A DNA stretch of 40,578 nucleotides, taken from the NCBI GenBank assembly GCA_027319905.1, contig DAHVMJ010000005.1:1-40578 (forward strand). The letters are read 5' to 3'. Position 1 is the stretch's first letter. Every line of letters starts with the position of its first letter. Shown one piece after another: positions 23,943 to 39,831 of this stretch. Origin of the DNA: Candidatus Micrarchaeota archaeon. GTDB taxonomy: Archaea > Micrarchaeota > Micrarchaeia > Micrarchaeales > CABMGC01. Both the position numbers and the translations under genes were made by a program. The notes beneath the pieces were generated by a model that saw only the letters and a list, made by a program, of their open reading frames with translations, ran no database searches and was not told the DNA's origin.

Positions 23943-23946
23943 TTGG

Positions 23947-24915
23947 ATGACAAATAACAAACTGGTTTCCGTAGTGATCCCGACCTGGAACCGGAGGGAG
24001 ATGGTTGTGCGTTGCATAGAGAGCGTGCTGCGCAGTGGCTACGAGAACATAGAAGTGCTGGTTGGCGAGGATCCTTCTAAAAATGAAGCGGAGCCTGAAA
24101 TCAGAAGAAAATATGGGAAAGACAGGAAGGTGAAGTATCTAAAAAACAAAAAGATGGCTTTAGTGGCAGCTACTGTCAACAAGCTCCTGAGGCTTTCAAA
24201 AGGTGAGTACATCTTTCTTCTAAACGACGACAACGTAATTGACAAGAGATGCGTGGAGGAGCTGGTCTCGAGTCTCAAAAGACACAAGGAAGTTGGAATT
24301 GTTGGGCCTCTGGCCTTCTACTACTCTCATCCCAAAATAATCATGCATGCGGGAACGGTCAGGAGCGGTTTCATGAGAGCGTTTACCTCTCCGCATGCGA
24401 ATGAGAAATGGCACGGCCAGATAAGAGAGGGTGATGTCGTGGATGATTTCGGCAATGCCTTCATGTTCAGGAGAGAAGCAATGCTGAAGGCTGGCATGTG
24501 GGACCTGCTTGTGCCCACCCAAGGCGAAGATGGCGATTTTGAGGCTCGCGTCAAGAAGGCAGGCTACGGTGTGATAATTAATCCTAGGGCGAAGACGTAT
24601 CACGATATACCTTATCTTCCCGTTTCAAACACCGTGTCGTTGTTCTTCCTGAGGGTTGACCAGGTTAGATTGTACAATGCGATGCACAGTAAGATACTGT
24701 ATGAATATAGATACGAAAGCACGATTAATAAACTGACGTTCACGCTTTCGTTGCCAGTCTATTACTCCTACTATGTGTATGCTATTATGAAAACCCCGAA
24801 CTACCACACCCTAGAAGATAAGCTACACCTTTTTGCTCTTCTGAACACAGGAATACTGAAGGGGTTCTGTGATGCGCTGTTTGCAAGAAACATGATAGAG
24901 TACATCAAGCGGTAG
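23947..24915 (+). CDS. GT2 glycosyltransferase
   Basis: VSVVIPTWNR, FLLNDD, GIVGP, GEDGDF...R motifs. Confidence 0.92.
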   Translation: MTNNKLVSVVIPTWNRREMVVRCIESVLRSGYENIEVLVGEDPSKNEAEPEIRRKYGKDRKVKYLKNKKMALVAATVNKLLRLSKGEYIFLLNDDNVIDKRCVEELVSSLKRHKEVGIVGPLAFYYSHPKIIMHAGTVRSGFMRAFTSPHANEKWHGQIREGDVVDDFGNAFMFRREAMLKAGMWDLLVPTQGEDGDFEARVKKAGYGVIINPRAKTYHDIPYLPVSNTVSLFFLRVDQVRLYNAMHSKILYEYRYESTINKLTFTLSLPVYYSYYVYAIMKTPNYHTLEDKLHLFALLNTGILKGFCDALFARNMIEYIKR

Positions 24916-24965
24916 TTGATGGCTAAAGTGATGCAATCTAAAGAATTGTATCGTGAGAGTGAATA

Positions 24966-26693
24966 TTAGCGGCTTTCAAGGTATTTCATCAAATAGTAAA
25001 AACCATCATCAAGTCTTGTGGGCTCCGTGGTATTCTTGAGGTACTTTATAGTTATATCATCAAAACTTTTCACTCTATGTAGCTGCGTCTCTCTTGCCTG
25101 ATAGTTATCGATAGATACTATTGGGACATTAAGTTGCATAGGAAACCTCATAGCCCCAGATGAGGTAAACGTGTTTTCCTGTGCAAATAATATATGCGTA
25201 CACACGCTGAGCTCGCTCAACGCCTTCTCTCGATTGAAGCTATTTATTATCTTTATCTTATTAGACCCATATTTGTTTCTGAGTCTTCGTATCTCAGCCA
25301 GCCCCTCTTCCTCAACCTCCCCGGAGACGTTAGATACGCCCAGGACTATGACTGCCTTTATTCCAAGTCTTTTGGCAAGATTACAAATTTTGTCTACGTT
25401 CTTTGCACGGGTAGCAAATCCAAATGTGCCTATGCAAAGACCCTTCTTGATTTTCTTTTTAAATCTGATATATGGATATTTGATGTGGGGCATTATTGTA
25501 TATCTTTTGAACATGCCTTCAACGAGTTCGTTATTAAAAACTAAGAGAGGGTGTTTATCACTTAACTTCGATTGTCTTTCATTCATAGATAAAAAGTTTT
25601 TTACGCTATGCAAAGGATGCCGCCAGACTGGGGATTTGATGGTGAATATGCTCATTATTGTCTGTATCTTATTCTGCATGTTTGGAAAGGTGTGCAACTC
25701 TATTATCACGTTTTTATCATTTGGGAGTCGGGCTTCCTTCATTCCAGACTCGAACTGCAGTATTGTCGGATATTTGTTTTTGATCGCCTCGAGATGTTTG
25801 AACAAGTTCACTCTTACACCCACTTCATCGAATCTTTGAGCGAGAGCATAAGAGTACTCGCTTATTCCATCTTTCAATCCAAGGCTTGCGCACACTATAT
25901 TTACCTCTTTTATAACACGTATCTTCATCACTTTTTTAAGCCTGAGAGTAATCTGTAGAAATGCATAATCCTTGTTTATTGCTGAGCTGTGTATGGGTGC
26001 CCCTTTCTGTTTGGGCAGTTTGCTATTTTTGTCGTAAAGCTCGAACCCGATTTTTTGGGCATAGTTTATTATCTCATTTATCTCTTTTGCATTGAAGATG
26101 TGCCATCGCTTTTTGAATGCAGTATGCTTGCCGGTATCTATGCGAGTCTCGTTGTAGTCAGTAGTAATAAACAGGATTCCGTTGTTCTTTAGCAAGCGTT
26201 TTGCTTCTTTTAAGAATGACTTGAAATAGTTTACACCATCACCGTGCTCTATTGCGCTTATCGAGAGCACAGCATCGAACATGTTTGATGGAAAATGGGT
26301 ATCAAGCATATCGCCATACATATATTTTATACGCCATGAGAAGGGCATATTAAGTATGTCTCTGTTGAGATCTATGCCATAAAGATGTTGGAAGCCGAGT
26401 TCAGAAAGGTACCATAAACTTGCATCTTTATATGCTCCTAGATTGGCTATGTGCGCCGATTTACCAAAATTTTTCTGGATTATCTCCAAGGCCAATAAAT
26501 AATCGCAGCCTTTCAGTCTGTCCTGAACTCTTATTACGCCCTCGCGATCGGGATTTAAGAATGATGTCATTTTCTTTGTCTTAATATCTGAAAACCTAGA
26601 ATCGAGCTCCTTATTGCTTGCATTTATCTCACTGACATTGTCTATAATTCTTATCATATAGCTATCACTCCTTTTCAAAGCGACGTCCGGCAT
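24966..26693 (-). CDS. Fusion: class I SAM methyltransferase plus GT-B (GT4-like) domain
   Basis: NLGA, YGIDL, GDMLDTHFPSNMFDAVLSISAIEH, LLKNNGILFITTD; then GISEYS..L, GTFGF..KN, SSGA. Confidence 0.75.
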   Translation of the reverse strand: MPDVALKRSDSYMIRIIDNVSEINASNKELDSRFSDIKTKKMTSFLNPDREGVIRVQDRLKGCDYLLALEIIQKNFGKSAHIANLGAYKDASLWYLSELGFQHLYGIDLNRDILNMPFSWRIKYMYGDMLDTHFPSNMFDAVLSISAIEHGDGVNYFKSFLKEAKRLLKNNGILFITTDYNETRIDTGKHTAFKKRWHIFNAKEINEIINYAQKIGFELYDKNSKLPKQKGAPIHSSAINKDYAFLQITLRLKKVMKIRVIKEVNIVCASLGLKDGISEYSYALAQRFDEVGVRVNLFKHLEAIKNKYPTILQFESGMKEARLPNDKNVIIELHTFPNMQNKIQTIMSIFTIKSPVWRHPLHSVKNFLSMNERQSKLSDKHPLLVFNNELVEGMFKRYTIMPHIKYPYIRFKKKIKKGLCIGTFGFATRAKNVDKICNLAKRLGIKAVIVLGVSNVSGEVEEEGLAEIRRLRNKYGSNKIKIINSFNREKALSELSVCTHILFAQENTFTSSGAMRFPMQLNVPIVSIDNYQARETQLHRVKSFDDITIKYLKNTTEPTRLDDGFYYLMKYLESR

Positions 26694-26704
26694 CCACTAA
26701 TCAT

Positions 26705-27721
26705 CTACCTTTTATAGAGATCTATATCAACAAGGTTGTTCTCCATGAGATACTTAAACTGCTTTTCTGCCCAATAGTATGGCTGATTGAACTCTTCTGA
26801 AGTCAGGGGCTTAGAAACATATAAATCATACACTTCTTTTATTCCGTCTTTTACAGTAATTCTAGGTTTATAACCAAGTTCTTGCTCTGCTTTTGAACCA
26901 TCAACTTTGTATGATCGGGCATCCTTGTCTGGCAGCATGATGCTCATCTTCATTCCTAACATTTCTGCTATTTCTTTCCCTAGGTCTATTATTCGGTAGT
27001 TTTCACCAACTATAGAATATATGCCTGTAATGCCGTCCCTCAAAGCTAACGAGTAGGCTTGAGATAAGTCTTCGATGTGCACAAGCGCACGCCAAGCCGA
27101 TCCGTCTCCGCGCAGCCTTATCTCTTTTTCCAGATATCCGTATCCAGTTATATTATGTACAACCATGTCGAACCGCATGCGTGGAGAGACTCCGAAACAT
27201 GTTGCATTTCGCATGCATGTGACAGTAAAGTCTTTATCTGCTAGAGCCATCAACGCCTGTTCTGATCGATACTTAGACCATGCATATGGTGTCAGAGGAT
27301 TTGGCTCATCCTCTTCATTTATCAGCTCATCACCTTTTGCGCCGTAGACGGAACAAGAAGAGGCAAATATAAGTTTCTTGACCCCAGCGCTCTTTGCAAT
27401 CACTGCCAATTCTTTGGTTGCAAGGAAATTTATTTTATTAGTCATTTCTGGTGCGAGATTGGCAGCGAAATCGTTCGGTAGGGCTGCGAGATGCACCACA
27501 GCATCGATGTCCTTCAACAGATGCGCAAGTTTGTCGGTAGATCTTATATCTATTTTATATGTTTTAACTTTGTTTGATGCTTCGTAAGCATCAAATCTCC
27601 CGAATACTTTGTTTGGAGGGAAATAATCACAGTCGACTCCTATAATATCGTGTTTTGAGATTAAGTTTGCTGTTAATACTCTCCCGATATACCCATGATT
27701 CCCTGTTATTAAGATTTTCAT
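26705..27721 (-). CDS. NAD-dependent NDP-sugar epimerase/dehydratase/reductase (extended SDR)
   Basis: ITGNHGYIG, HLAA, ASSCSVYG, YAWSK, RNATCFGVSPRMRFD. Confidence 0.93.
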   Translation of the reverse strand: MKILITGNHGYIGRVLTANLISKHDIIGVDCDYFPPNKVFGRFDAYEASNKVKTYKIDIRSTDKLAHLLKDIDAVVHLAALPNDFAANLAPEMTNKINFLATKELAVIAKSAGVKKLIFASSCSVYGAKGDELINEEDEPNPLTPYAWSKYRSEQALMALADKDFTVTCMRNATCFGVSPRMRFDMVVHNITGYGYLEKEIRLRGDGSAWRALVHIEDLSQAYSLALRDGITGIYSIVGENYRIIDLGKEIAEMLGMKMSIMLPDKDARSYKVDGSKAEQELGYKPRITVKDGIKEVYDLYVSKPLTSEEFNQPYYWAEKQFKYLMENNLVDIDLYKR

Positions 27722-28473
27722 TAAATTCCCTTATCCAGCATGCCCCACTTTGCTATAATCTTCTCTGCTTCTTTCAACTCTTTTTGTGTGTTTACAGTTG
27801 CCCACCCTTCTCCTTTTCGCAGCATATACCCTACGAGTTTTCCAGTGCCAGCCATTTTTTTAAATACAGTGCCTTCGATGGAACCGGAACGTGGTATATG
27901 CCTTACGATTTTTTTGTTAAAAATGTATACACCTATACTGATGGGAAGTTCGTTGACTATCTTACCGTACTCGAACTTTTGAACCTTTGAACCGTGCCCC
28001 TCGACAGTCGGTTGGTCGCTATCTTTATCAAAGCTTATAACGCTAAATTTACATAGAAGGGGGACGAGGGCGAGAGTGGCAGTAGCCTTATAGCTGAGAT
28101 GTGCCTTCTCCATCTCTGTTAGGTTCATGTTTGTGAGCTCATCGCCGTTCATAGCGATAAAATCTCCTTTGGGCTTCAGTTTCATTATCGCAAGTCTAAA
28201 TGCCTCGGCAGTACCACCTTCAACAGGGGGATTCTCGCTACATTCTATCTTGATGCCAAAGTCATTCTTTGCTAAGTAGTCATATATTTTTTCTTTCTTA
28301 TATGCGACCGCCAGCACTATGTGCTTGATTCCGTTCTTTTTGAGCCATTTAATTATCCAATATAGAAGTGGTCTTCCATTTACTTCTACGAGAGGCTTTG
28401 GTTTATTCTCAGTTGAAGCATTTAGTCTGCTTCCTCGCCCTCCGACCAGTACTATTGCCTCATTTAACGTCAT
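27721..28473 (-). CDS. Sugar-1-phosphate nucleotidyltransferase
   Basis: LVGGRGSRL...KPKPLV, GGTA, MNGD. Confidence 0.92.
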   Translation of the reverse strand: MTLNEAIVLVGGRGSRLNASTENKPKPLVEVNGRPLLYWIIKWLKKNGIKHIVLAVAYKKEKIYDYLAKNDFGIKIECSENPPVEGGTAEAFRLAIMKLKPKGDFIAMNGDELTNMNLTEMEKAHLSYKATATLALVPLLCKFSVISFDKDSDQPTVEGHGSKVQKFEYGKIVNELPISIGVYIFNKKIVRHIPRSGSIEGTVFKKMAGTGKLVGYMLRKGEGWATVNTQKELKEAEKIIAKWGMLDKGI

Positions 28474-29779
28474 TCAAATCGCCGTATACCTTCAGTTTTG
28501 GCACTAGGGTTATTAGTTTTCCTCCTCCAGCAAGGAAATCGCTCTCCTGATTGACAAACTCTCTAATGAACTGATAGGGTAAAACGAGAAGATAATCTGG
28601 AGCTTCCGCTCTATATGAACCATATGGCAGGATCTTTATTCCAGTATCTGCTATATATCTGTTAAATTTGTCTTTATTCTTATCTGTTGCGTATCTTATG
28701 GTGGCTTTATCTATTCCCATATATTGTAGCATTACCAAACCTCTAGTTGATGCTCCGAATATCATGACCTTCTTACCCTCTTTAGTAACGTTATGGAGAA
28801 ATCTTAACGTATCACTCTTCAGCAGCTTGATTTTCTTTGCGAACTCCACATATGTCTCTTTTTTATCCAACCTTTCCTTCTTTTCTTTGTTCTTTAACAT
28901 TTCCAAGGATGATCTGTTTGGATTTTCCGAGGAACTTGCATGCCTAACGTAAATCTTAAAGCTACCACCATTCACATCATTTAACTCAACGTCATCTATT
29001 CGCAACCTGTGTTTTGAGAGCAAGTAATCTAATGAGAGAAGCGAGTAGTACTCCAAATGTTCGTGCGAGATGTTATCAAATGTCTGATTTTTAATCATAA
29101 GCCCTAGATAGTTCATCTGTATTATCCATAGCCCATCTTCAGATAGGCACGCCCGTATGTCTTCTACGAACTTATTTGGATCATCTAAGTCATAGAACAT
29201 CGCGATAGATGTTATGATCTTGGCTTTTTTATTTCCTATTTTTAAAATAAAAGTTTCGTAATTGAAGAAATCATTTATAATAATGCTATTTTGCATCTCA
29301 GGAGTGTATTTTACAAGATTTGAAGGCTCGAAGCCTACTTTCGTAATTTTATTTTGATAAAAGGTCAGAAGTGTTCCATCGTTCGAACCTATGTCAATTA
29401 CCATGTCATCATCGTTCAGTTTGACGCGGCTTGATGCGTCTTCTACAACATCCATTAATGTTTTAACCATAGTGGCGCTTATGCCAGAACGATACCAATA
29501 GTCCTTATACAGAATACGGTGATTAAATGTATGTTTGAGCTGCAGAAGTTTGCAGTTAGAGCAGAGTACCAGTGTTAAAGGTGCTTTAGGTACAGCATCA
29601 TTTTCCTTTTCAGGGAAGCTCACAACGGCCTGATCGCCCAAAGACAAGATGTATTCCAATCTGTTGTCATTGCACACTCTACAGCTTAATATTTCTTTTA
29701 TAGGCAGTTCATCGTCGTCAATATGTTTGCTGGAGTACGCTCGAAATCGATCTGCTTTACTTACAGTTTTGGAACTCAT
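28460..29779 (-). CDS. NDP-hexose C-methyltransferase (Zn-binding N-terminus, SAM domain, C-methyltransferase C-terminal domain)
   Basis: CRVC...CSNC, YWYRSG, DIGSNDG, FDNISHEHLEYYS, NGGS, FGASTRG: architecture of sugar C3-methyltransferases such as TcaB9/NovU. Confidence 0.9.
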   Translation of the reverse strand: MSSKTVSKADRFRAYSSKHIDDDELPIKEILSCRVCNDNRLEYILSLGDQAVVSFPEKENDAVPKAPLTLVLCSNCKLLQLKHTFNHRILYKDYWYRSGISATMVKTLMDVVEDASSRVKLNDDDMVIDIGSNDGTLLTFYQNKITKVGFEPSNLVKYTPEMQNSIIINDFFNYETFILKIGNKKAKIITSIAMFYDLDDPNKFVEDIRACLSEDGLWIIQMNYLGLMIKNQTFDNISHEHLEYYSLLSLDYLLSKHRLRIDDVELNDVNGGSFKIYVRHASSSENPNRSSLEMLKNKEKKERLDKKETYVEFAKKIKLLKSDTLRFLHNVTKEGKKVMIFGASTRGLVMLQYMGIDKATIRYATDKNKDKFNRYIADTGIKILPYGSYRAEAPDYLLVLPYQFIREFVNQESDFLAGGGKLITLVPKLKVYGDLNDVK

Positions 29780-29855
29780 AAAAACGATTCATTATGTGTA
29801 AAACAGCTTTAAATAGATTGTATGTGTGAACTTATGAAGATTTTGGGCGAATTAC

Positions 29856-32312
29856 TTGGAGGAAAGCAGGCATGATGATGCAAGAATAGCTGATTCAGAA
29901 CATTACACACCTAAGAAAAAACATAGCACGTATGCAGTCTACGTGTTCCTGTTAGCCATTGCTCTTATTCTGATAGTAACAATTTACTTCCGCATCCCGA
30001 TGCTTCACTTCTACGGCTTCTATGAGCCAGATGGCTATTTCCACTACTCCGTTATCAGAGCTGCAGTAAGTAATGGCTTCGCCATACCCCAACAGCTTTC
30101 GACATCAGGTTGGCCTCCCACATGTGTCAGCTATCCGCCCTGCTCTCCTGCTATTCCAGACCATGAAGCCTTCGGTCTATATTTTGTAACATTGATCCCT
30201 TACTTCTTCCTGCAGTTCGCCGGGGTCAGCTATTACGACATAATGCGTCTAATACCAGTCCTCTTTGCCATTCTTGACGTTCTTCTGGCATACTTCCTAG
30301 CCAGCTACTGGAGCAAGAACAGGGCGTTCGGTTTACTAGTCATGCTCCTTGTCGCTCTCAACATGGGCAACGCGGCGCGCACCAGCGCGCTCATCTACCG
30401 CGGCGACGGCTTCGTAACGCCTTTTCTGCTAGGGGTGCTCATCGTCACCATAGCTCTATTCCGAACTACCGATAGAAGGAAGAGGTACGAGTACGCGGCG
30501 CTTGCTGCAGTGCTCCTCGCTCTGTGCAACCTCGTCTGGAACGGCGCGCCGTTCAGTACAGCAGTCTTCATCTTCGCATTCGTGCTCATCCTGTTGCTCG
30601 GTTTTGTTTACAACAGGAAGAATCTGGTGGACGGCAGTTTCTTTATGCTCGTCACAATGGTGGCGTGGTTTATATTCGTAAGCATCTTCCATGCATTTGC
30701 ATGGATACTGGGGCAGACATTCACCGGCTTGCATTTCTTCATACTGCTCGTACCGATGGCCGTAGGCTGGTATGCTGTAGACTACCTCGTCAACAAGAAG
30801 GGCGAGCATAGGCTGCCCTTCATCGGCACGCCCACACAGCGCTTCCTCTTCTTCGTCGGCGCATCCGCCGTGGTCTTCATCGCCATCTTCGTACTCATAC
30901 CGAGCTTCGTAGAGTCAATCTTCGTCACCAACGGTTTCTACATAACCTCGGCCTTCGCCTCGACCATACAGGAGCTTCAGCCGCCCAGCTACTCATTCCT
31001 CTTCGCCAGCTTCAACTTCCAGAACTTCACCAATCCGATGAGCATACTCATGGTCATCGCCACCTACTTCCCGTCCTCCCTAGTTATCTTGTTCTGGCTC
31101 ATCCTGCTTGCGCTCTTCATCCCCTACTTCTTCATGCACATCGAGCATGAGGATGGCGATGGCTGGCTCGGTGGCAAGGCGGTGTGGCGCTTCGAGTTCA
31201 ACGAGACCACGCTGATACTCGTGTCGTACTTCGCGCTCACCGCGTACCTTCAGATGAACGCCATACGCTTCAACTCCCTCGTCTCCGTACCAGTCTCGAT
31301 ATTCAGCGCCTATACTATCTACTGGTTGGTTATGTGGCTGAGGAACCGCGGCCTCTCCCTACATCTTACTGGGTTCAGGTATGCCTACTACGCATCCCTG
31401 CTTCTGATAGTGCTGCTAATCGTCTTCATGATACAGGCAGACATTGGATACACGACAGGCCTCGCTCCAGCTGACGAGATCAACCCGCAGTTCATCCAGG
31501 CGCTGGCGTGGATGCACAACAACACCGCTGCGAACAGCGTCACGCTGACACTGTGGCCCGACGGCTCCGTAGTGGAAGGCGTAGCCAATCGCACAGTGGT
31601 CACCGACAGCGTAGAGTCGCAGAACGGACCCAAAGGAGATCTCTTCGCAGCATGGCTCTACAACTCTAGCTCAGACCCAGGCTTCCTGCTGGCGAACTAC
31701 ACCGGCGCGCCGAACTACCTGCTAGTGAGGCAGGCATGGATGGTTGAGACAGGAGGCATCTTCACTGAAGCGGGCATAAACGGCAGTTCGCAGGGCTATG
31801 GATACAACCCGTTCACCAGCGTGAGCGAACACGCAAACGCTACCTCTCAGGTGCTGCAGTTCTTCGGAAGCGGAGGACTTGAAGAGGACACTGTCATAAC
31901 CAACAGCAACACCACCGGCAGGACGATCGCCAGCTACCTCAGGTTCAGCAACGGCATACAGCCGTTCGAGTACGTTGGTTTCTACAACGTGCTGACCGGC
32001 AACTGGTCAATGATAAAGCAGACCGCGTTCAACGTCACCAACAACGAGACATTCCTTATCACATACTCACCGCTTGCGTCGCCCGGCAAATATGTGAATG
32101 TAACTGGCGCCTACATGCTGGGCCAGTCGCTTGCGAGCAGCAACATGGTCAAGTTCCTGTTCCAGTGCAACTCGATCGGCTGCGCCTGGAACAACAACGC
32201 GGCAAGCCTGAAGCTGGTCTACATCAACCAGGACACCAAGATCTTCCAGATCGAGTACAACATGAGCAACTCAACCATAGCCTCGATGGTGGCGAGGTAT
32301 CCAAGAGCATGA
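29856..32312 (+). CDS. aglB: STT3/AglB-family oligosaccharyltransferase paralog 1 (non-canonical WWDYG)
   Basis: EPDGYFHY, YRGD, TIQE, IRF, ALAWMHNNT..LTLWPDGS...ANR..VTD; multi-TM N-terminus and soluble C-terminal domain. TTG start. Confidence 0.85.
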   Translation: MEESRHDDARIADSEHYTPKKKHSTYAVYVFLLAIALILIVTIYFRIPMLHFYGFYEPDGYFHYSVIRAAVSNGFAIPQQLSTSGWPPTCVSYPPCSPAIPDHEAFGLYFVTLIPYFFLQFAGVSYYDIMRLIPVLFAILDVLLAYFLASYWSKNRAFGLLVMLLVALNMGNAARTSALIYRGDGFVTPFLLGVLIVTIALFRTTDRRKRYEYAALAAVLLALCNLVWNGAPFSTAVFIFAFVLILLLGFVYNRKNLVDGSFFMLVTMVAWFIFVSIFHAFAWILGQTFTGLHFFILLVPMAVGWYAVDYLVNKKGEHRLPFIGTPTQRFLFFVGASAVVFIAIFVLIPSFVESIFVTNGFYITSAFASTIQELQPPSYSFLFASFNFQNFTNPMSILMVIATYFPSSLVILFWLILLALFIPYFFMHIEHEDGDGWLGGKAVWRFEFNETTLILVSYFALTAYLQMNAIRFNSLVSVPVSIFSAYTIYWLVMWLRNRGLSLHLTGFRYAYYASLLLIVLLIVFMIQADIGYTTGLAPADEINPQFIQALAWMHNNTAANSVTLTLWPDGSVVEGVANRTVVTDSVESQNGPKGDLFAAWLYNSSSDPGFLLANYTGAPNYLLVRQAWMVETGGIFTEAGINGSSQGYGYNPFTSVSEHANATSQVLQFFGSGGLEEDTVITNSNTTGRTIASYLRFSNGIQPFEYVGFYNVLTGNWSMIKQTAFNVTNNETFLITYSPLASPGKYVNVTGAYMLGQSLASSNMVKFLFQCNSIGCAWNNNAASLKLVYINQDTKIFQIEYNMSNSTIASMVARYPRA

Positions 32313-32340
32313 GGCTCCGAACGATTGCGCGGGCGCAGGC

Positions 32341-33831
32341 ATGATGAGGACATCTGCATATCTTATAGCAGTAATTCTCTTGGCTACGGCCTTTGCAGCT
32401 TTCTGGATCCACTATGGCGTCTTTACCTACAGCTCTTTCAGGGACGGCTATTTTGACATAGGGATAGAGACAATCAGCATGTACCAGCACCTGGCCTGCA
32501 ACGCTTCCAGCCAGCTAGCCAACCTGCCCGTATTCGGCAACCACCAATCTCCGACATTCCTTCTCTTTTTGCCTATATTCGCAGCCTTTCAGAGCCCAAT
32601 CACGCTCTTTGTGATCCAGGACATTGCGTTGGCTTTAACGGCGGTGGTGGCTTACCTGGTCGGAAGAGATGTGCTTAAGAGCGAAAAGATAGGGTTCGCG
32701 CTTGCGTTTGCGTTCATAATAAACCTTGGGGTGAGCAGCATGGCGTCTTTCGACTTTCATGCTGAAGCGTTCATACCGCTCTTCTTCGTCCTTGCGTTCT
32801 ACTTCTACATGACCAGAAGACCGAAGTTCTTTCTTGCCAGCCTACTTCTGCTTATGGGCCTCATAGACATATACTCGTACATAATAGCGGCCACGCTGGT
32901 CGCCGCGCTCCTCCTTTACGAGTGGCATTATGAGTCCAAAGAGCCAGGGCACGCGCCCCGGATGAGGCTGCTCATGTTCGCGGCCGTGATGATAGTTGTG
33001 CTCGCTGCGGCAGAGCAACTACTGGCGATCTATATAACGTCACAGACGCAGTTGCTGGGACTGACAATTCCACCTACCCTCAGACTCGCATATGGACAGC
33101 TGAGTTTGGGCAATGTGTTTGGGGGGAGTGCATCGGTTAACCAGAACATACCAGTTGAAGCGTTGGGAGTGCTTCTCGTGTTCTTCGGATACGGCTATAC
33201 CTCACTTTCCAACCTTTTCATAAGCCTGCTCATGTTCGCTCCGTGGCTCAAGGGAGCGCTCATCTCCCCCGCAAATCAGGCGCTCTTTGGTTTGCAGTAT
33301 TATGGGTTTGTCGAAGGAGCAAGCGTTGTCGCCGCGGTAATAGGCATACTTGTACTGAGGAAAAAAGGTAAAAACTTGAGTGACGGCTTCCTGATGAAGT
33401 CCATACTCCTCTTTGCGATTCTGATTCCTTTATTGGCCGCATCCGCAGCGTCGGTCCTCGTGTTTGACATGGCCAACTCGTTCCTTGGACTACACGGATT
33501 CATGCAGGCCTCAGAACCTACAGCATACTCTTCGCTCTTGAAGGCGATAAGCCTGATACCCCGTAACGCCAGCGTGCTGTCCCAATCCGAGATAGCCCCG
33601 CACCTGTATTACATATGCAATTTAGAATACTCGAAATCCCAGGTTCCGGGCATGCCGCTGTCCATAGCGTTATACGTCAAGCCCCAGTACATAATCATGG
33701 ACAAGTACCTGGGTGATTATCAGTCGTTCATTGACCCGAGCGTGTTCAACATTACCGGCTATATTTCAGGCAATTATACGCTGGTCTATAACCAAAGCGG
33801 AGCGATGCTCTACAAAGCAAACGGCAGCTGA
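32341..33831 (+). CDS. DUF2079-like GT-C membrane protein
   Basis: YFDIG, FGNHQSP, TLFVIQ, DFHAEAF, QYY, IPRNASV..PHL motifs in a multi-TM protein. Confidence 0.8.
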   Translation: MMRTSAYLIAVILLATAFAAFWIHYGVFTYSSFRDGYFDIGIETISMYQHLACNASSQLANLPVFGNHQSPTFLLFLPIFAAFQSPITLFVIQDIALALTAVVAYLVGRDVLKSEKIGFALAFAFIINLGVSSMASFDFHAEAFIPLFFVLAFYFYMTRRPKFFLASLLLLMGLIDIYSYIIAATLVAALLLYEWHYESKEPGHAPRMRLLMFAAVMIVVLAAAEQLLAIYITSQTQLLGLTIPPTLRLAYGQLSLGNVFGGSASVNQNIPVEALGVLLVFFGYGYTSLSNLFISLLMFAPWLKGALISPANQALFGLQYYGFVEGASVVAAVIGILVLRKKGKNLSDGFLMKSILLFAILIPLLAASAASVLVFDMANSFLGLHGFMQASEPTAYSSLLKAISLIPRNASVLSQSEIAPHLYYICNLEYSKSQVPGMPLSIALYVKPQYIIMDKYLGDYQSFIDPSVFNITGYISGNYTLVYNQSGAMLYKANGS

Positions 33832-33856
33832 CGCATTAAAGACGCGTGCGAAAAGC

Positions 33857-35224
33857 TCAGGAGCTCTGCAGGACTTTCAGCAGATACTGCAAACCGTCGT
33901 CCAACGAGATGGATTCAGTCGTATGCCTGAGGTAGTCTACGGTTATGTCGGACAGCCGTTTGACACGGTAGACCTGGGCTTCCTTGGCCTGGTAGTTGTC
34001 CAAGCTTATGACAGGCTTGCCAAGGCTGATCATGTATCTTATGCTGCCGCTTGTGCCAAGGGCGTTGTTCTGCGCGGATACAAGATGCGTGCATGAAGAG
34101 AGGCGACGCCGCATCTCTCCGTAGCTAAATACGCCATTTCCAGGAGCAGTGACTATCTGTATGCGGTCGCTGTTGTATCTCTCGTACAGTTTTTTAGAGT
34201 ATGCCAACTGCAGGCTCCTGCTGTGCTTATTGAGATTTGTTATGCTCAGGAGTATAGTGCACCTTATCTTCAATGCGGAAGCCAGATCGCATATCTTGTC
34301 GAAGTTCTTACTCTCGCTTGCAAACCCAAAGCTGCCTATGTGCAGCTCTTCCTGCATGGCCCTTGCAGCCCTGGCGGAGCTGCCCTGAGGATAGGCGATG
34401 TGCGGCATGATTGTGTATCTCTTAAGGTGTGAAGCGCGCGCGAGCTCATTGCTGCGCACAAGCAGGGTCTGGAGCTGTAGCTTTCGTAGCTCCTGCCTGT
34501 TGCCGAGTCGCTTGAGTACGCTGAGCACGTATCCTGAGTGAAATGCCAAGAGGTACAGGATGTTTAGTATATCTGCAGGGTCCCTGACAAGGCCGATAAT
34601 CCTATTCTTCATCTCAATCCAGAGAAGAAGATAGCTAGGAGTGGCGTGGGCCTCTATGATGTAGCCCTTTGCGCTGTCCGGAAGCGCGTTCTTCAATCCA
34701 GGTTCGTACTGTATGATTGTTTTGAGTCTTTTGTTTCGCACCTCTTTCTCGCTCTTGAAGAGATGTGCTACAATGCCCGCTTCTTTAAGGCGCGCTTGGA
34801 GCACTCGTGTATACTGGCTTATTCCATCATTCTTGTCCAGGCTTGGGCAGATTATGTTGACTTCGTGAAGTCTGCTTTTAAGTTTCTGTTTGCGCACTTT
34901 TATCTGCCTGGAGTCATCGGCTCGCGGGTTCGTAGACGAGGGGCCCACGATGGCCAGCGTGCCTCCATCTTTTGTGATTCTGCGCGCCTCGCGTATCTGT
35001 ACTGGATCATCGCGTATAGCGTATACATAATCAAACATGCTATCGGGAAAATGAGTTGCCAGAGGGCTACTTACGGAATACTTGATTTTGTTAGAGAATG
35101 GCAGGTCATAGATCTTCTTGCTTGTTGAGAGTCCATAGAGGTGTCTGTAACCAGACTTGGCAAATCTTCTGAGTTTAGTGTCGTCTAATGCCTCCATGCA
35201 TAGGATAAAAGCATCTTTATTCAT
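33857..35224 (-). CDS. Paralog of 24966..26693: degenerate methyltransferase plus GT-B domain
   Basis: HLYGL, THFPDSMFD, EVNIICPSL..DGISQY, RYTIMPHI.YP, GSFGFA..KN.DKIC, SLDNYQAKEAQVYRVK all align with the paralog. Start placed at the ATG overlapping the upstream stop; 35257 is also possible. Confidence 0.75.
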   Translation of the reverse strand: MNKDAFILCMEALDDTKLRRFAKSGYRHLYGLSTSKKIYDLPFSNKIKYSVSSPLATHFPDSMFDYVYAIRDDPVQIREARRITKDGGTLAIVGPSSTNPRADDSRQIKVRKQKLKSRLHEVNIICPSLDKNDGISQYTRVLQARLKEAGIVAHLFKSEKEVRNKRLKTIIQYEPGLKNALPDSAKGYIIEAHATPSYLLLWIEMKNRIIGLVRDPADILNILYLLAFHSGYVLSVLKRLGNRQELRKLQLQTLLVRSNELARASHLKRYTIMPHIAYPQGSSARAARAMQEELHIGSFGFASESKNFDKICDLASALKIRCTILLSITNLNKHSRSLQLAYSKKLYERYNSDRIQIVTAPGNGVFSYGEMRRRLSSCTHLVSAQNNALGTSGSIRYMISLGKPVISLDNYQAKEAQVYRVKRLSDITVDYLRHTTESISLDDGLQYLLKVLQSS

Positions 35225-36122
35225 GGACAACCTCAATTGCATTGTTCTTTCCCCCATAAAGGTATTTATTTTCGAAGCACAGGACCATGCAGCCGGTTTG
35301 TTCGTACAACTCTCGCGCTTCGACTATAAGAGACTCATAGAAGACGAATGGCCTATGGCTCTTAATCGCGTTAGCTTTCACCTCTATGGCACTCTTCTCA
35401 TCATTTCGCATCATTAGCATCCCGTATTCGACATTGTGCCTTCTCAACCAGCCTTCTGTTACGGCTCTGTGTTTCTCGTGCCTGCCAGTAGCCAGGAAGG
35501 CCACCTTGTAGGCGGGAATGAACAGCTCTTCTGCATTCTTATAGAAATTGGTCAGGAGTGCGCCACTCAACCCGGCGGGAGGGTCGGCGCAGAGAACTCC
35601 ATCTATATCCATTGCGATGTTGTCTCGGGGATGCTGGGCCAAATCAGATTCAAAAAACATCTCGTCCCCGACAACCTTTTTGTACGCGATCTTGCCAGCC
35701 ATCCGAGTAGAAGCATACGGCGCAGCAATGATTATCTCCGCGCCTTTGAGTTTTTCGAGTATGCTCCTTTTGGCATCCATGCTCGTCCGACCAGAAGTAA
35801 CTGAATCATCGACAAGCAGGATTCGCATAGTCTTAAACGTGATCTGTTTTCCTTGGATGTCTTTCTTATTCCTGACAGAGGATGGCGTGGCCAGGGGCTT
35901 ACCTAGAAATACCGATGCCGCGGCGCCGCTGATAAGCCCGAGGCGGGGTATGCCGACTACGCAATCAACATTGTGCGGCAGTGTTTTCGCCCATTCCGCG
36001 TTGACCAACATGAAATCAAAAAAGGGGACGAATTCGTAGTGGATGCGATTTTTAAGGTAAGCAACGTACGTCTTGTACTTGTTCTGATTTCTCTGCAGAA
36101 CGCCCTGGATTCTACCTAGCAT
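35217..36122 (-). CDS. Fusion: type I phosphoribosyltransferase plus HAD phosphatase
   Basis: VVGIPRLGL and LLVDDSVTSGRT (PRPP-binding loop); then MDIDGVLC, ATGR, K, FYES (HAD). Start placed at ATG 36122, overlapping the upstream gene's end. Confidence 0.85.
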   Translation of the reverse strand: MLGRIQGVLQRNQNKYKTYVAYLKNRIHYEFVPFFDFMLVNAEWAKTLPHNVDCVVGIPRLGLISGAAASVFLGKPLATPSSVRNKKDIQGKQITFKTMRILLVDDSVTSGRTSMDAKRSILEKLKGAEIIIAAPYASTRMAGKIAYKKVVGDEMFFESDLAQHPRDNIAMDIDGVLCADPPAGLSGALLTNFYKNAEELFIPAYKVAFLATGRHEKHRAVTEGWLRRHNVEYGMLMMRNDEKSAIEVKANAIKSHRPFVFYESLIVEARELYEQTGCMVLCFENKYLYGGKNNAIEVVHE

Positions 36123-37224
36123 GATAGTTTGCCTCTTTAATAAAAACAAATTCAGGCATAGATGTGACAAGCTTGAATCCTTGCGAGCTTATAATTTTCA
36201 GAATTCTGTGTTTTCCGGAGGTTTTTTTGCCTTCTTCTGGAGGGTGCGGTTCCAATTGAATCAGATAAACATTAGAAAGATCGATTTTGGCTCTTATTGC
36301 TTCGTATTCGCTCCCTTCTATGTCTATCTTCAAAACTATATTGCTCTTGGGAGGGAAAGTTTTGAGCAATGAATCAAGGGTCTTTTGGGGGACCTCTACG
36401 TAGCCTGCGGCTTTAGAAAGATGTTCTGATACTGTATTGCCGCTATTTTCGTTAGTGCCGTATCTTAGATTCAGAATCTTATCTTCTCCGCCTATGGCCA
36501 TCTTTGCATATTTTATTTTCCCATAGACGCTTTTTGGTTGCCTGCTGTAGATGTTTCTATAGCCTTCTTCATAAGTGTATGGAATCGGTTCGAACGCATA
36601 AACAATCTTTACATTTGGATTCTTGGCGAACGCTATTGCCGTATCTCCTATGCTGGCGCCAAGATCGAGAAAGATGCTATTTGGCTTTATTTTATCATAA
36701 AGTAGCTGAGTTTGCAAAAGGGAGTCTCTGGACCAATCTTTCAATCTGGTTTCTTCCTCAGCGTCCCTTGCGGAAAATCTCCCATTGGCCCTTGCCCTCA
36801 TTTTCCTCGTGCGATCCAGGATATCTGTTAACTCGCGTGTCGGTATCCGTAGCGCCTCATTCACAGCCATCTGGTTCTCGAGAAGCACGATGGCGGTATC
36901 GTACGAGAGTATCTCCTTGTCGCCTATGGGGTAGTTGAGGACCGGGTTGGCTTCGGTGCTCACCTGATGCTCCCTTCCCCAGAAACCAGAGCGTTTCGAC
37001 ACAATTCCTATCACGACGGACGCTGCAACCAGGATCAGTCCTATGAAAGCATACGTGTAAGGATTTGCCGGAACGTACTTGTATAGCAGGAAGTTATAGA
37101 TTATGGTGAAGTAGGCGACAAGTCCCAATACCAGCGCAAGATAGTTTGCCCAGCCCAGTTTGAAGTACATGTAGGCTCTTCCAAACAGGTCTACCGTCTT
37201 CGTTTTTACTCCTTCGTACTTCAT
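36112..37224 (-). CDS. FkbM-family methyltransferase with N-terminal two-TM domain
   Basis: FLDLGASIGD, YAFEP, LKIDIEGSE motifs; two hydrophobic segments in the first ~80 aa. Confidence 0.85.
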   Translation of the reverse strand: MKYEGVKTKTVDLFGRAYMYFKLGWANYLALVLGLVAYFTIIYNFLLYKYVPANPYTYAFIGLILVAASVVIGIVSKRSGFWGREHQVSTEANPVLNYPIGDKEILSYDTAIVLLENQMAVNEALRIPTRELTDILDRTRKMRARANGRFSARDAEEETRLKDWSRDSLLQTQLLYDKIKPNSIFLDLGASIGDTAIAFAKNPNVKIVYAFEPIPYTYEEGYRNIYSRQPKSVYGKIKYAKMAIGGEDKILNLRYGTNENSGNTVSEHLSKAAGYVEVPQKTLDSLLKTFPPKSNIVLKIDIEGSEYEAIRAKIDLSNVYLIQLEPHPPEEGKKTSGKHRILKIISSQGFKLVTSMPEFVFIKEANYHAR

Positions 37225-37294
37225 TTTTACTCACATGCGAAAGATATCAATAATTAGACGATACAAGTTATAAAACACTTCTGTAGGTATCTCT

Positions 37295-39703
37295 ATGGGT
37301 AATGAGGCTATGAAGAAAGGCGCCAGGATGGGAAGCCGAAAACGGACGATACTTCTGGCAGCTGCTGTTTTGGCGATAGTAGTCCTAGCCCTAGTCCTTC
37401 GAACTCACTTGCTGCAGTACTATGGATTTTTCGAACCTGACGGCTATTACCATTACGCTGTCATTGAAGCCGCAATACACAACGGCTATTCCGTTCCTGC
37501 TAACCCGCCGCTCTCCGGATGGCCGCCCAACTGCAACATAGTGGTAGGCAACTCTACCTGCTCACCGGCCATCCCGCACGGAGAGCCGGTGGGATTCTAT
37601 ATGCTGACGCTCATCCCTTATCTCATACTTGGTTTTTTGGGAATCAGCGCATACTCGATAATGCGCATAGTTCCGGTTATCTTCGGACTCTTGGGCATGC
37701 TGTTCGCGTACATTCTGGCCATGCGCTGGAGCAATAACAAGGGTTTCGGGATTCTGACGATGCTGTTTGTGGCGGTGAGCATGGCAAACATCTCCAAGAC
37801 AGAAGCCCTCAGCTACCGCGGCGACGCTTTCGCCACAGTATTCTTGCTAGCGGCGCTGATTGTGACGCTTGCGATGCTTGATGCTGAAAAAATTAGGACA
37901 AAACTCACGTACCTGCTCGGCGCGGCGTTGTTGCTTTCCCTATGCAACCTGGTGTGGAACGGGGCTGCGTTTGCAACTGCGGTGTACGCATTTGCCATAA
38001 TGTTGATATTGCTATACGGTTTTGTTTTTAAGAACAGAAAACTGGTTAGCGACAGCGTATACATGTCTGGCGTACTCCTCCTGTGGTTTGCTTTGGTCTC
38101 GCTGTTCAATGCAATCGGGCTGATTCGGGGTCAGACATTCACCGGGCCTCCGTTCTTTCTGGCGCTACTGCTCTTGTCCATAGCAGTATATGCAGGGAAG
38201 CGCATGCTTGATTTGGGAATGGATGAACGTGTCTACGTCATTAGCACCGCAAAGAGACGACTGGCGCTCGCGGCGATCGTGGCGCTGGCATCCACAGCGG
38301 TAATCAGCCTGGCTATTCCCGGCTATCTGGGGCACATAGCTGGCCTTGCAGGATACAACGGAAATAACAACTTGCTAGCAACGATACAAGAGCTGTTTAG
38401 GCCTAGTCCCCTGTACTTCTGGAACAGTTTTGGATTGCAGAACCTGATGACTCCCTTAGGACCAGTGATGATGCTCGCGGCAGCCCTGACTTCCGGAAGC
38501 TCGACAGCAATGTGGGTCGTGCTGCTCTTCTTTTCAATGTGCTACCTATTCATGCAGATAAACAAAGAAAATGAAGGCGAAAATGGCGAGCAGGCTGCAG
38601 TCAGATTCGCGCCGAATACGACTACGCTTGTGCTCATCTCCTACTTCTCGCTTACCGCATACCTCCAGATGAGTGCGATCAGGTTCGGATACCTCATATC
38701 TATTCCTATGGCCATATTTAGCGCGTTTACGCTTTACTGGCTGTTCCTGTACTTACGAAGATGGAAGGCTATACGTATGGCGTCCATCGCAGTAGGCATA
38801 GTTATCGTGGTCTTTGTGTGCTATGCAAGTTTCAATTCAATTTCAGGCATTGTGCCAAGCGATAGCATAAACACGCAGTTCATCCAGGCGCTGGCGTGGA
38901 TGCACAACAACACTCCCTCGAATAGCGTGGTGCTTACGTTGTGGCCTGAGGGATCCGTGGTAGAGGGCGTGGCCAACAGGACAAGCGTCACAGACAGCGT
39001 TACAGCGCAGTCGATATACAAAACAGCGCAGTTCGCGGCCTGGCTATATGACTCTGGCGCCGACCCCGCTTTTCTGCTAGCCAACATCACCGGCGCTCCA
39101 GACTACCTTCTCGTGAGGCAGATGTGGATGAATGAGACACTATCGATATTTCTGGAGTCAAACATAACCGAAGTCAATTCGTCCGCGTACGGTTATACGT
39201 CCTTCAGCAGGTTGACCGAACTGACCAATAGCACGTCCAAAGTGTACAAGTTCTTTAACGGAGCGGCTGAGGCTGACATGGTTGTGGCGACGAACAAGTC
39301 AGGCGGCACAGTCTCAGCCTACTTCAAATCCGGGAGCATACTGCAACCATTCAGGCACATAGCTTTCTACAACACAGTTACAGGCAACTGGTCAGTAGCG
39401 AATCAGACCTCTACTGGAGACATAACCGCGAATAACTTCACCTTCTTAGTGCTCTACTCTCCGGTGAACACCGCGCACGGATACCTGAACGTGACCGCGG
39501 CCTATGCGTTAAGCCCGTCGCTTGCGAGCAGCAACATGGTCAAGTTCCTGTTCCAGTGCAACACTCTTGCGTGCTCGTGGGACAACAACGTGGCAAGCCT
39601 GAAGCTGGTCTACATCAACCTTGACACCAAGATCTTCCAGATCGAGTACAACATGAGCAACGCGAGCGTCGCTGCAGACGTGGCAGAGTATCCGCGCGTT
39701 TAG
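37295..39703 (+). CDS. aglB: STT3/AglB-family oligosaccharyltransferase paralog 2 (non-canonical WWDYG)
   Basis: EPDGYYHY, YRGD, TIQE, IRF, LTLWPEGS; colinear with paralog 1 over its full length. Confidence 0.85.
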   Translation: MGNEAMKKGARMGSRKRTILLAAAVLAIVVLALVLRTHLLQYYGFFEPDGYYHYAVIEAAIHNGYSVPANPPLSGWPPNCNIVVGNSTCSPAIPHGEPVGFYMLTLIPYLILGFLGISAYSIMRIVPVIFGLLGMLFAYILAMRWSNNKGFGILTMLFVAVSMANISKTEALSYRGDAFATVFLLAALIVTLAMLDAEKIRTKLTYLLGAALLLSLCNLVWNGAAFATAVYAFAIMLILLYGFVFKNRKLVSDSVYMSGVLLLWFALVSLFNAIGLIRGQTFTGPPFFLALLLLSIAVYAGKRMLDLGMDERVYVISTAKRRLALAAIVALASTAVISLAIPGYLGHIAGLAGYNGNNNLLATIQELFRPSPLYFWNSFGLQNLMTPLGPVMMLAAALTSGSSTAMWVVLLFFSMCYLFMQINKENEGENGEQAAVRFAPNTTTLVLISYFSLTAYLQMSAIRFGYLISIPMAIFSAFTLYWLFLYLRRWKAIRMASIAVGIVIVVFVCYASFNSISGIVPSDSINTQFIQALAWMHNNTPSNSVVLTLWPEGSVVEGVANRTSVTDSVTAQSIYKTAQFAAWLYDSGADPAFLLANITGAPDYLLVRQMWMNETLSIFLESNITEVNSSAYGYTSFSRLTELTNSTSKVYKFFNGAAEADMVVATNKSGGTVSAYFKSGSILQPFRHIAFYNTVTGNWSVANQTSTGDITANNFTFLVLYSPVNTAHGYLNVTAAYALSPSLASSNMVKFLFQCNTLACSWDNNVASLKLVYINLDTKIFQIEYNMSNASVAADVAEYPRV

Positions 39704-39831
39704 TAGGGCTTCTCCGCTGTTATCTCTGCTATCATTTCAAAGTCCTTTACGTTCTGGGTCAGGAGTTTGCAACGAAGATTGATCGCTGTCGCAGCTATCA
39801 TCGCATCGATAAGGTTTGTGCCGTACTTTCT
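39700..39831 (-). pseudogene. 3' remnant of a vapC PIN toxin gene
   Basis: Unannotated minus frame reads RKYGTNLIDAMIAATAINLRCKLLTQNVKDFEMIAEITAEKPY*; the N-terminal half is missing. Confidence 0.85.

Follow-up and report, generated by a model that had tools for sequence, protein, structure and literature searches.

The stretch of DNA analysed here (hereafter the window) is an entire contig (C36; 40,578 nucleotides) of the genome of a Candidatus Micrarchaeota archaeon (G000; 855 kb in 40 contigs, estimated to be ~91% complete). Between 22.8 and 40 kb, beside the gene for an S-layer protein, it carries two genes for proteins related to the STT3 subunit of oligosaccharyltransferases (OSTs), each arranged head-to-head with a compact operon, and the two operons encode different sugar-tailoring genes. 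We consider it moderately probable that this region is a strain-variable surface-glycosylation island that is a mosaic and not a duplicated unit, i.e. that it combines exchangeable cassettes with copies of an order-specific STT3-fold family. The layout of repeated modules is ordinary for glycan islands, and a mosaic, swap-prone island is a known kind of locus. New are two of its elements, namely an order-wide STT3-like family with an apparently rebuilt acceptor pocket and a small family of cassettes that contain a fusion of a methyltransferase with a GT4-type glycosyltransferase (MTase-GT4).

An earlier note on this DNA had identified the two STT3-like genes (copy 1, 29856..32312, + strand, 818 amino acids (aa); copy 2, 37295..39703, + strand, 802 aa) as paralogs of AglB. 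However, the canonical AglB of this genome, an open reading frame (ORF) of 1013 aa with the sequence SWWDYGDW, is encoded on another contig (C11), and the window pair belongs to a different STT3-fold family. WWDYG is absent from both window proteins, the aligned position reading TLWPDG in copy 1 and TLWPEG in copy 2. This position is LWPDG in 20 of 24 aligned sequences, the other four being copy 2 (WPEG), L040 (LWSDG), L045 (VWPDG) and L038 (VWTDG). Canonical AglB was matched in all 61 relatives (44-84% identity) and carries WWDYG in 16 of 16 extracted orthologues, and the STT3-like family is present in 55 of the 61 related genomes. In a sample of the phylum the family occurs in 85 of 91 genomes from the two main families of the order Micrarchaeales and in none of 109 genomes of 23 other families (these tallies take in the unpublished genomes G050 and G220, on which no claim depends). 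Copy 1 is the orthologous copy of this order-specific LWPDGS family, with 64% identity to the orthologues of G007 and G002. Some sources label family members 'Stt3'; a full-text literature search, seen largely as listings, returned no paper on an LWPDGS STT3-like family.

The fold assignment is based on a model of copy 1 that was built from a 93-sequence alignment and has a pLDDT of 91.6. Its 19 best matches in a Foldseek search of the PDB, all of them chains of STT3, AglB or PglB, have E values of 1.5e-13 to 4e-10 and TMq values of 0.42-0.58; DPY19 (3e-8) and ArnT (1e-4) rank behind them, and the isolated C-terminal domains of PglB and P. furiosus STT3 were matched separately. Residues invariant in the 93 sequences include E57, P58, D59, R182, G183, D184, E373, R471, W567, P568, G570, S571 and E574, several of which lie in motifs that a global profile-profile alignment with 16 canonical Micrarchaeales AglBs (probability 97.6%, E 1.7e-11, 730 columns) pairs with their AglB counterparts. 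The first acidic motif, E57-P58-D59 in external loop (EL) 1, aligns to EFD, the second, R182-G183-D184, aligns to AGE with a single acidic residue evident, and TIQE, which contains E373 and which we take to be the TIXE/SVSE motif of EL5, aligns to TVQE; LWPDG is paired with WWDYG. Profile searches by sequence gave lower or mixed scores: with PF02516, the STT3 family of Pfam (cut-off 24.5), copy 2 scores 42.2 bits and copy 1 22.1 bits as an ORF and 25.2 in a genome scan, the two window copies reach 63.6 and 52.3 bits with TIGR04154 against a cut-off of 450, and copy 2 has no sequence match in the PDB at E<=1. The Pfam core-domain models PF21436 and PF22627 are non-discriminating, as canonical AglB itself falls below their cut-offs (16.1 and 11.6 bits).

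In WWDYG it is the WWD residues that make up the pocket receiving the sequon's +2 Ser/Thr, and it has been proposed that the paralogs of one organism have one common kind of Ser/Thr pocket, as stated in PMC3703281. Compared with AglB, STT3 and PglB (CAZy GT66; A. fulgidus AglB-L, 7e9s/3waj; C. lari PglB, 3rce), the window family has the same full-length GT-C fold including a C-terminal globular domain and shares the acidic EL1 motif and the TIXE-type EL5 motif, with a single acidic residue evident in its conserved EL2 motif, but it has LWPDGS where OSTs have WWDYG. It resembles the multi-paralog AglB sets of Archaeoglobus in having multiple paralogs per genome, and departs from the one-pocket-type rule proposed in PMC3703281 in coexisting with a WWDYG-bearing AglB in the same genomes. 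Judged from alignments and the model, the window family thus appears as an order-specific STT3-fold family that has kept the catalytic loops, has a rebuilt acceptor pocket and coexists with canonical AglB. A sub-threshold STT3 Pfam match (16.8 bits) was also seen elsewhere in the genome, in a 507-aa open frame (C37:13404-13787, - strand).

All ten ORFs named in the earlier note were recovered in place, and Pfam and NCBIfam profiles assign them to the families described there. The four minus-strand genes of module 1 are closely packed into an operon, neighbours overlapping or being separated by no more than 14 nt. Its first gene encodes a nucleoside diphosphate (NDP)-sugar 3-C-methyltransferase of the TylC3/TcaB9 type (28460..29779), followed by a sugar-1-phosphate nucleotidylyltransferase (27721..28473, 250 aa), an extended short-chain dehydrogenase/reductase (SDR; 26705..27721, 338 aa) and, as the last gene, a long-form MTase-GT4 fusion (24966..26693). 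Module 2, likewise on the minus strand, consists of an FkbM methyltransferase with two N-terminal transmembrane helices (36112..37224), a two-domain phosphoribosyltransferase (PRTase)-HAD protein (35217..36170, 317 aa) and a short-form MTase-like-GT4 fusion (33857..35257, 466 aa) as the last gene. The outer genes are indeed paralogous between the modules, the fusions with 33% identity (E 6e-82) and the STT3-like proteins with 48% over 790 aa (E 0), and the gene families between them differ, as had been claimed. The divergent intergenic regions, of 76 bp (29780..29855) and 70 bp (37225..37294), each contain an AT-rich TATA-like element read directly from the sequence, TTTAAATA ~40 bp upstream of the start of copy 1 and TTATAAAA ~20 bp upstream of the ATG of copy 2. 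The similarity between the two regions is not significant, the alignment revealing no common motif beyond AT-richness, and no shared promoter motif emerged when both were aligned with their G007 counterpart, which gave scattered identities only. Between the modules lies a gene that was missing from the earlier note; it encodes a DUF2079 membrane protein (32341..33831, + strand, 496 aa; PF09852, 95.8 bits) and starts 28 nt downstream of copy 1. DUF2079 was rejected as a conserved partner of the STT3-like gene, as it is present in 22 of 61 related genomes and mostly unlinked. One RNA run was examined against the stretch and gave a single 37-nt match of <90% identity.

The earlier note had suggested comparing relatives to see whether aglB and MTase-GT-B stay linked, and had named beforehand the lack of this linkage in relatives as speaking against its proposal. 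Among 20 regions of 17-20 kb around the STT3-like gene, taken from 19 relatives, an MTase-GT4 homologue was found in a single locus, that of G007, so that the linkage is for the most part not kept. G007 has the entire module-1 gene set beside its STT3-like orthologue, but rearranged and at 45-52% identity, and is the only other genome in which the two genes are adjacent. With the MTase-GT4 query, five of the 61 related genomes were matched, namely the window's own, G007 (full length), G019 (short form), and G031 and G006, where the matches are weak and involve the methyltransferase domain alone; G019, a genome that is 84% complete, gave no STT3-like match with the query used. Of 21 copies of the STT3-like gene, 4 have a divergently oriented neighbour immediately upstream. 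What recurs near the STT3-like genes of relatives is variable glycan machinery, i.e. GT4, GT2, SDR, nucleotidyltransferase and FkbM genes, including in G004 (L043) a GT2 pair upstream of the STT3-like gene that is 55% and 50% identical to that of the window. Nine of the 21 copies are followed on the opposite strand by a conserved small ORF (~120-150 aa, no Pfam match), which in seven loci is the next ORF downstream and in two the third (e.g. L035 11237-11611, - strand). The 108-aa ORF 3' of copy 2 was considered as its equivalent and rejected, since the two do not align; the window has no homologue of the small ORF there.

The cassettes also occur on their own. The MTase-GT4 family is small; in a set of 1.84 billion proteins it accounts for 73 cluster representatives at E<=1e-30. 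Among 26 of its loci in other genomes and metagenomes, many on contigs of only 2-12 kb, an STT3-type neighbour is found in one (G007). L067 carries the module-2 set of MTase-GT4 fusion, FkbM and PRTase-HAD at 37%, 41% and 55% identity, L068 a C-methyltransferase, an SDR and two MTase-GT4 fusions, and neither has an STT3 neighbour. FkbM homologues are present in 13 of the 26 loci, and one locus is from a contig of a Thermoplasmata metagenome-assembled genome. It would appear that sugar-tailoring cassettes centred on this rare fusion move among archaea independently of any OST. The island can be compared to the aglB-centred N-glycosylation islands of Archaea, such as the agl cluster of Haloferax volcanii, where an STT3-type gene likewise lies amid glycosyltransferase, nucleotidyltransferase, SDR and methyltransferase genes near an S-layer gene and gene content varies. 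It differs from them in that its central transferase is non-canonical and present in two to three copies, and in that its cassettes look horizontally exchanged, as suggested by low GC content and by their recurrence in Thermoplasmata and unassigned metagenome contigs.

Base composition points in the same direction. The four tailoring genes of module 1 have GC contents of 0.375-0.422 (C-methyltransferase 0.375, fusion 0.391, SDR 0.409, nucleotidyltransferase 0.422), whereas the 395 long ORFs of the genome average 0.538 (standard deviation 0.035, 1st percentile 0.388), which places the C-methyltransferase gene under the 1st percentile. As they lie far under the genome mean, the module-1 tailoring genes look foreign. 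GC contents are 0.446-0.496 for the module-2 genes, 0.52-0.53 for the STT3-like genes and 0.47-0.49 for the cassette of G007. Owing to this contrast the cargo of module 1 looks recently imported and that of module 2 older. A tandem duplication of the whole module was rejected, since the two fusion genes differ in GC content (0.391 vs 0.496) and in subfamily (long vs short), and DNA repeats between the modules (62-296 nt, 72-81% identity) are confined to the STT3-like genes. Other long ORFs with GC contents of 0.35-0.40 are found on contigs C7, C35, C40 and C22 of this genome, three of them on C7 (overall GC 0.47); they could represent additional imported islands, or else contamination introduced by binning.

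The two STT3-like copies have different histories. The STT3-like proteins of the relatives are all nearer to copy 1 than to copy 2, and in trees copy 2 branches within the genus-level clade (SH-aLRT 97) whether or not the last 130 aa are included; its end branch is 1.52 as compared to 0.25, or 1.23 and 0.17 without the last 130 residues. A sister relation of both copies is not rejected (approximately unbiased test, p 0.06). Going by these sequence comparisons, copy 1 appears to be the vertical orthologue and copy 2 a within-genus duplicate that evolves about six times faster. Of the 151 columns with a conservation of at least 90%, copy 2 differs at 22, the most of all 93 sequences (median 5, next 13), and its changes include a run by the RGD loop (G171-I180), N473 and S474 after R471, and D569E, G587 and S588 at the WPDG motif. 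A 3' tract of 213 nt (repeat D2) is common to both genes; 32090..32302 (+ strand) in copy 1 and 39481-39693 in copy 2 have a DNA identity of 81%. Where the two proteins have the same residue, the fraction encoded by the same codon is 0.23-0.5 over the first 340 codons and rises gradually to 0.87 in the last 60. To judge from this gradient, the 3' tract is a probable anchor of gene conversion or recombination.

Two further sets of sequences bear on the turnover of the locus. On C25, a contig of 2850 bp from the same genome, a third STT3-like copy (60% identical) is cut by the contig end so that its 3' end is kept; C25 also bears a gene of the sulfatase family (PF00884), 49 codons left over from the 3' end of a further STT3-like gene, and a PIN/antitoxin pair. 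Positions 1-452 of C25 match window positions 40291-39839 at 85%. At the rearranged right border of the window there is an orphan antitoxin-like ORF (39737..40063, - strand, 108 aa) that is 74% identical over 69 aa to the ORF preceding the PIN-domain gene of C25, the PIN partner being missing in the window. In two sequencing runs of another study (X2 and X3), which belong to a set from mine-drainage and tailings populations, contigs are almost identical to 31677-32151 and 32241-40576, differing at no more than 9 positions per 3.6 kb. For the 5' 1.5 kb of copy 1, by contrast, the only matching contigs have 86% identity (211 differences over 1537 nt), and these run into unlike sequence before 29982. 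This pattern hints at an exchange of alleles and cassettes with a breakpoint inside copy 1. No contig of X2 or X3 with at least 85% identity was obtained over most of 23800-29800, which spans the second GT2 gene and the module-1 operon, with negligible depth in three bins, a hole that is no evidence of absence; as a hint only, the low-GC cassette may be missing in that population.

The enzymes of module 1 are consistent with the formation of a branched sugar. The product of 28460-29779 matches PF08421 (43.0 bits), PF13489 (38.8 bits) and PF08484 (140.7 bits), all above cut-off, and its best solved relative is the D-mycarose 3-C-methyltransferase 4rv9 (E 1e-47, residues 29-428). Its similarity to the NDP-hexose 3-C-methyltransferases TylC3, TcaB9 (~1e-35) and KijD1 is thus full-length and includes the zinc-binding N-domain, but the known enzymes belong to antibiotic deoxysugar pathways and the window gene to a DPANN protein-glycosylation island. 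The nucleotidyltransferase matches PF00483 (NTP_transferase, 87.5 bits) and no NCBIfam equivalog at cut-off. The SDR (PF01370, Epimerase, 134 bits) contains SCSVYG and YAWSK, not a TDE triad, its best solved relatives are proteins of the UDP-GlcA 4-epimerase type (6zl6, 1.4e-27), and it looks more like an epimerase or ketoreductase than like a 4,6-dehydratase. The 575-aa fusion combines a predicted class I methyltransferase with a GT-B domain, as judged by a model of moderate quality (mean pLDDT 63). Residues 43-255 align to class I methyltransferases (Z 15.7; PF08241, Methyltransf_11, 41.4 bits, cut-off 21.2), and the GT-B call of the earlier note was borne out by residues 261-575, which align to GT4-type GT-B enzymes (VIA-align: 7fg9, Z 14.9, root mean square deviation 4.0, 269 residues aligned; PimA 14.5; WbnH 14.1; WaaG 13.4). 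The C-terminal halves of both fusions match no Pfam family at E<=10, so that membership of Glycos_transf_1 or Glyco_transf_4 was not found by sequence.

In module 2, the short-form fusion has no Pfam match, and its methyltransferase-like domain is ~90 residues shorter than that of the long form. The earlier note had regarded this half as degenerate; the same reduction in five other proteins of 449-471 aa speaks against local decay and for a conserved short subfamily. The PRTase-HAD protein matches PF00156 (28.2 bits, cut-off 26.3) and contains the phosphoribosyl pyrophosphate (PRPP) loop ILLVDDSVTSGRTS and the HAD motif I DIDGVL; matches to HAD profiles are weak (PF03767, E 0.18), and its real start is probably the Met at codon 17. 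FkbM is well supported by PF05050 (67.6 bits, cut-off 22.7) and TIGR01444 (71.8 bits, cut-off 37.7). Bacterial bipartite ribofuranosyltransferases consist of a gPRT domain and a HAD phosphoribose phosphatase, as described in PMC11127046. The window protein has a comparable domain layout, in that a gene within a glycan cluster encodes a soluble PRTase-type domain (with PRPP loop) joined to a putative HAD domain whose motif I is of the DxDG type; it differs in being archaeal, in its size of ~300 aa and in having no separate glycosyltransferase module.

From these families we infer the substrates, the order of reactions, the acceptor and the pairing of each copy with its neighbouring operon. The cytoplasmic enzymes of both modules would decorate a dolichol-linked glycan. 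In module 1, the nucleotidyltransferase would activate a hexose-1-phosphate, the TylC3-type enzyme would place a 3-C-methyl branch on a 4-keto intermediate, the SDR would reduce or epimerise the branched sugar, the GT4 half of the fusion would move it to the lipid-linked glycan and the methyltransferase half would O-methylate. In module 2, the PRTase-HAD protein would add ribofuranose from PRPP and then strip the 5-phosphate, by analogy with bacterial gPRT-HAD as presented in PMC11127046, the membrane-anchored FkbM would methylate and the short-form GT4 may add another sugar. The chemistry suggested in the earlier note, a 3-C-methyl branched sugar from module 1 and a PRPP-dependent ribosyl step with methylation from module 2, is a reasonable prediction. 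The STT3-like proteins, of which there are two copies here and at least three in the genome beside canonical AglB, are predicted to act outside the membrane in an OST-like manner, handing the lipid-linked glycan to proteins of the surface, the S-layer protein among them, according to some rule that is not the recognition of the +2 Ser/Thr, copy 2 probably with shifted specificity. We favour the OST-like reaction on account of three features that appear to be kept: the acidic motifs, the TIXE-type loop and a C-terminal domain of the OST type. For the turnover of cassettes, the 3' end that is conserved in the STT3-like genes may provide a recombination anchor.

One rival of the mosaic is a true two-cassette system, in which each STT3-like transferase is dedicated to and co-regulated with its own operon's glycan, yielding two alternative surface glycans. 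It would account for the repeated head-to-head layout with its two short intergenic regions and their TATA-like elements, and the deviations of copy 2 from conserved columns are what a change of donor or acceptor is expected to look like; G007 retains the module-1 gene set beside its STT3-like orthologue, and the X2/X3 contigs, in which the 5' part of copy 1 is diverged with a different upstream region and module 2 is near-identical, could mean that transferase and operon were exchanged together. Against this stand the adjacency of fusion and STT3-like gene in 1 of 20 loci of relatives and 1 of 26 elsewhere (many contigs being short), the divergent upstream gene in only 4 of 21 copies, the same cargo sets in L067 and L068 with no STT3 neighbour, intergenic regions sharing nothing beyond AT-richness, and the differing age and composition of the modules, which therefore do not stem from one duplicated unit. 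The pairing put forward in the earlier note thus holds as to layout and differing cargo, and largely fails as to conserved linkage. The changes of copy 2 at conserved loops fit the pairing idea, but the unconserved linkage argues against a fixed system, and we regard the two-cassette reading as unlikely. Much less probable again is that module 2 and copy 2 are redundant duplicates heading to loss, their fast evolution and reduced methyltransferase domain reflecting relaxed selection. Copy 2 is the most deviant of the 93 sequences, it alone has E for D in WPDG, no orthologue of it was found in 60 relatives (the best match is 50% identical) and the module-2 methyltransferase-like domain is ~90 residues short; yet the ORFs of 802 and 466 aa are intact, copy 2 retains all 46 family-invariant residues and scores above copy 1 on the Pfam STT3 profile, the short methyltransferase-like form is a conserved subfamily, and the module-2 trio is intact in L067.

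A serious rival concerns what the STT3-like proteins do. They might be GT-C enzymes that modify glycans outside the cytoplasm: a dolichol-phosphate donor would supply a side-chain sugar, which would be joined to an already attached glycan or to a lipoglycan, in a manner comparable to bacterial three-component pentofuranose or Gtr-type systems. The WWD triad is absent from all 93 family members and canonical AglB is present in every relative, so that, it can be argued, a second protein OST is not needed. Module 2 appears to perform PRPP-dependent ribosyl chemistry, and PMC11127046 reports that bacterial ribofuranose side chains can be added extracellularly by GT-C enzymes; DUF2079 after copy 1 would be a second GT-C-type candidate. 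Opposed to this, OST catalytic subunits are the nearest structures by a wide margin, C-terminal globular domain included, and the EL5 TIXE-type motif and both acidic motifs are invariant. Moreover, the PRTase of the window is a soluble type I domain fused to HAD, like the cytoplasmic bipartite ribofuranosyltransferase, and unlike the membrane UbiA-type polyprenyl-phosphoribose synthase of the three-component system (both as described in PMC11127046), and neither module has a gene for a flippase or a polyprenyl-phosphate sugar synthase. We hold the glycan-modifying role, like the two-cassette system, to be improbable, and prefer a mosaic island with an OST-like family. A bolder form of the latter is conceivable and, in our estimate, slightly less likely than either: the LWPDGS proteins would be a second, AglB-independent class of archaeal OSTs that retains the machinery for activating Asn but recognises a determinant different from the +2 Ser/Thr, or that glycosylates another residue, and their paralogs would diversify together with horizontally swapped cassettes via 3'-end recombination, giving strain-specific S-layer coats tuned to Thermoplasmata hosts or viruses.

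Several observations weigh against the mosaic island and the OST-like role that we favour. Aligned locally, the profiles of the two STT3 families give a weak match (probability 62.6%), and the family profile aligned to a single canonical AglB over 40 columns only, the WWDYG region, with a probability of 9%; the acceptor of the family may be a glycan or lipid instead of a protein. Only 7 of the 20 loci of relatives have a homologue of the S-layer protein (39-52% identity) no more than 10 kb from the STT3-like gene, and in some relatives the STT3-like gene is found amid housekeeping genes, e.g. for a topoisomerase or a tRNA methyltransferase. Within module 1, the methyltransferase half of the fusion lacks the canonical GxGxG loop, the motif-I position reading LGAYKDAS on direct inspection. 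No clear 4,6-dehydratase was found, three SDRs matching TIGR01181 far under cut-off, which leaves a gap in the predicted pathway at the 4-keto substrate of the C-methyltransferase. As to turnover, C25 could represent either another locus or the window's right border as it stands in a variant strain, the latter case being the unfavourable one, and the contigs matching at 86% in X2 and X3 may come from another co-resident Micrarchaeon and not represent an allele of the same locus, which is why their pattern is taken as a hint only.

The S-layer protein gene (19663..22602, - strand, 979 aa; PF05124, S_layer_C, 57.8 bits) is not directly next to the modules, as the earlier note had it, since two tandem GT2 glycosyltransferase genes (23121..24915, + strand, 273 and 322 aa; PF00535, 92.3 and 87.4 bits; GC 0.476 and 0.464) stand between it and module 1. 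Its product contains 20 N-X-S/T sequons. The description as sequon-rich holds in comparison with the genome, where the median of long ORFs is 0.38 per 100 aa, but the number matches what its own composition yields (shuffle mean 18.6, standard deviation 3.7). The S-layer protein is likely the main acceptor of the glycans of the island. In a cultured Micrarchaeon the S-layer protein is glycosylated, as judged by periodic acid-Schiff (PAS) staining and a shift of ~30 kDa, and the same organism is reported to have no synthesis of activated sugars, according to a preprint (10.1101/2021.04.28.441871).

Other possible envelope proteins are encoded nearby. Adjoining the S-layer gene is a 688-aa ORF (17419-19485, - strand) with no Pfam match. 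It is very probably the same gene as an overlapping open frame of 705 aa, whose sequon density of ~4.5 per 100 aa is in the top ten of the genome's long frames. In three relatives (L038, L039 and L050) the neighbours of the S-layer gene include homologues with ~680-700 aa, and the ORF probably encodes a second envelope glycoprotein. In five relatives a giant co-directional ORF of ~2,000-2,345 aa lies just 3' of the STT3-like gene (L033 1-7037; L037 1784-8128; L039 1080-8093; L047 12182-18178; L049 1074-7943); that of L047, the single one scanned, has no Pfam match. These ORFs could encode large surface proteins and would then be candidate acceptors. The S-layer/GT2 intergenic region contains direct repeats (22794-22842 and 23025-23074; 21 + 29 nt, 86-90% identical, 231-232 bp apart), each starting with a CTATATATAG element, which may be a duplicated promoter. 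On the same contig, 18 kb upstream of the island, a membrane protein of the Glycos_transf_4 family (PF00953; 4068-5108, - strand) is encoded; this AglH/WecA-like type is an initiator of lipid-linked glycan synthesis.

Archaeal surface glycosylation is generally held to use one type of enzyme, AglB, defined by WWDYG; to our knowledge, there is as yet no explanation for N-glycosylation that proceeds without AglB, nor for the enzymes that carry out O-glycosylation in archaea. Here, a whole DPANN order keeps beside AglB a second, well-folded STT3-like family in which the catalytic motifs appear kept and the acceptor pocket rebuilt, which is often encoded near the S-layer gene and is sometimes multiplied. 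This family is thus a concrete candidate for non-sequon glycosylation. The island, in turn, suggests how a symbiont with a genome of 0.86 Mb may use imported cassettes to diversify its coat; for one of these cassettes, a relative lies on a contig from Thermoplasmata. Such diversification would matter because Micrarchaeota depend on cell contact with their Thermoplasmatales hosts.

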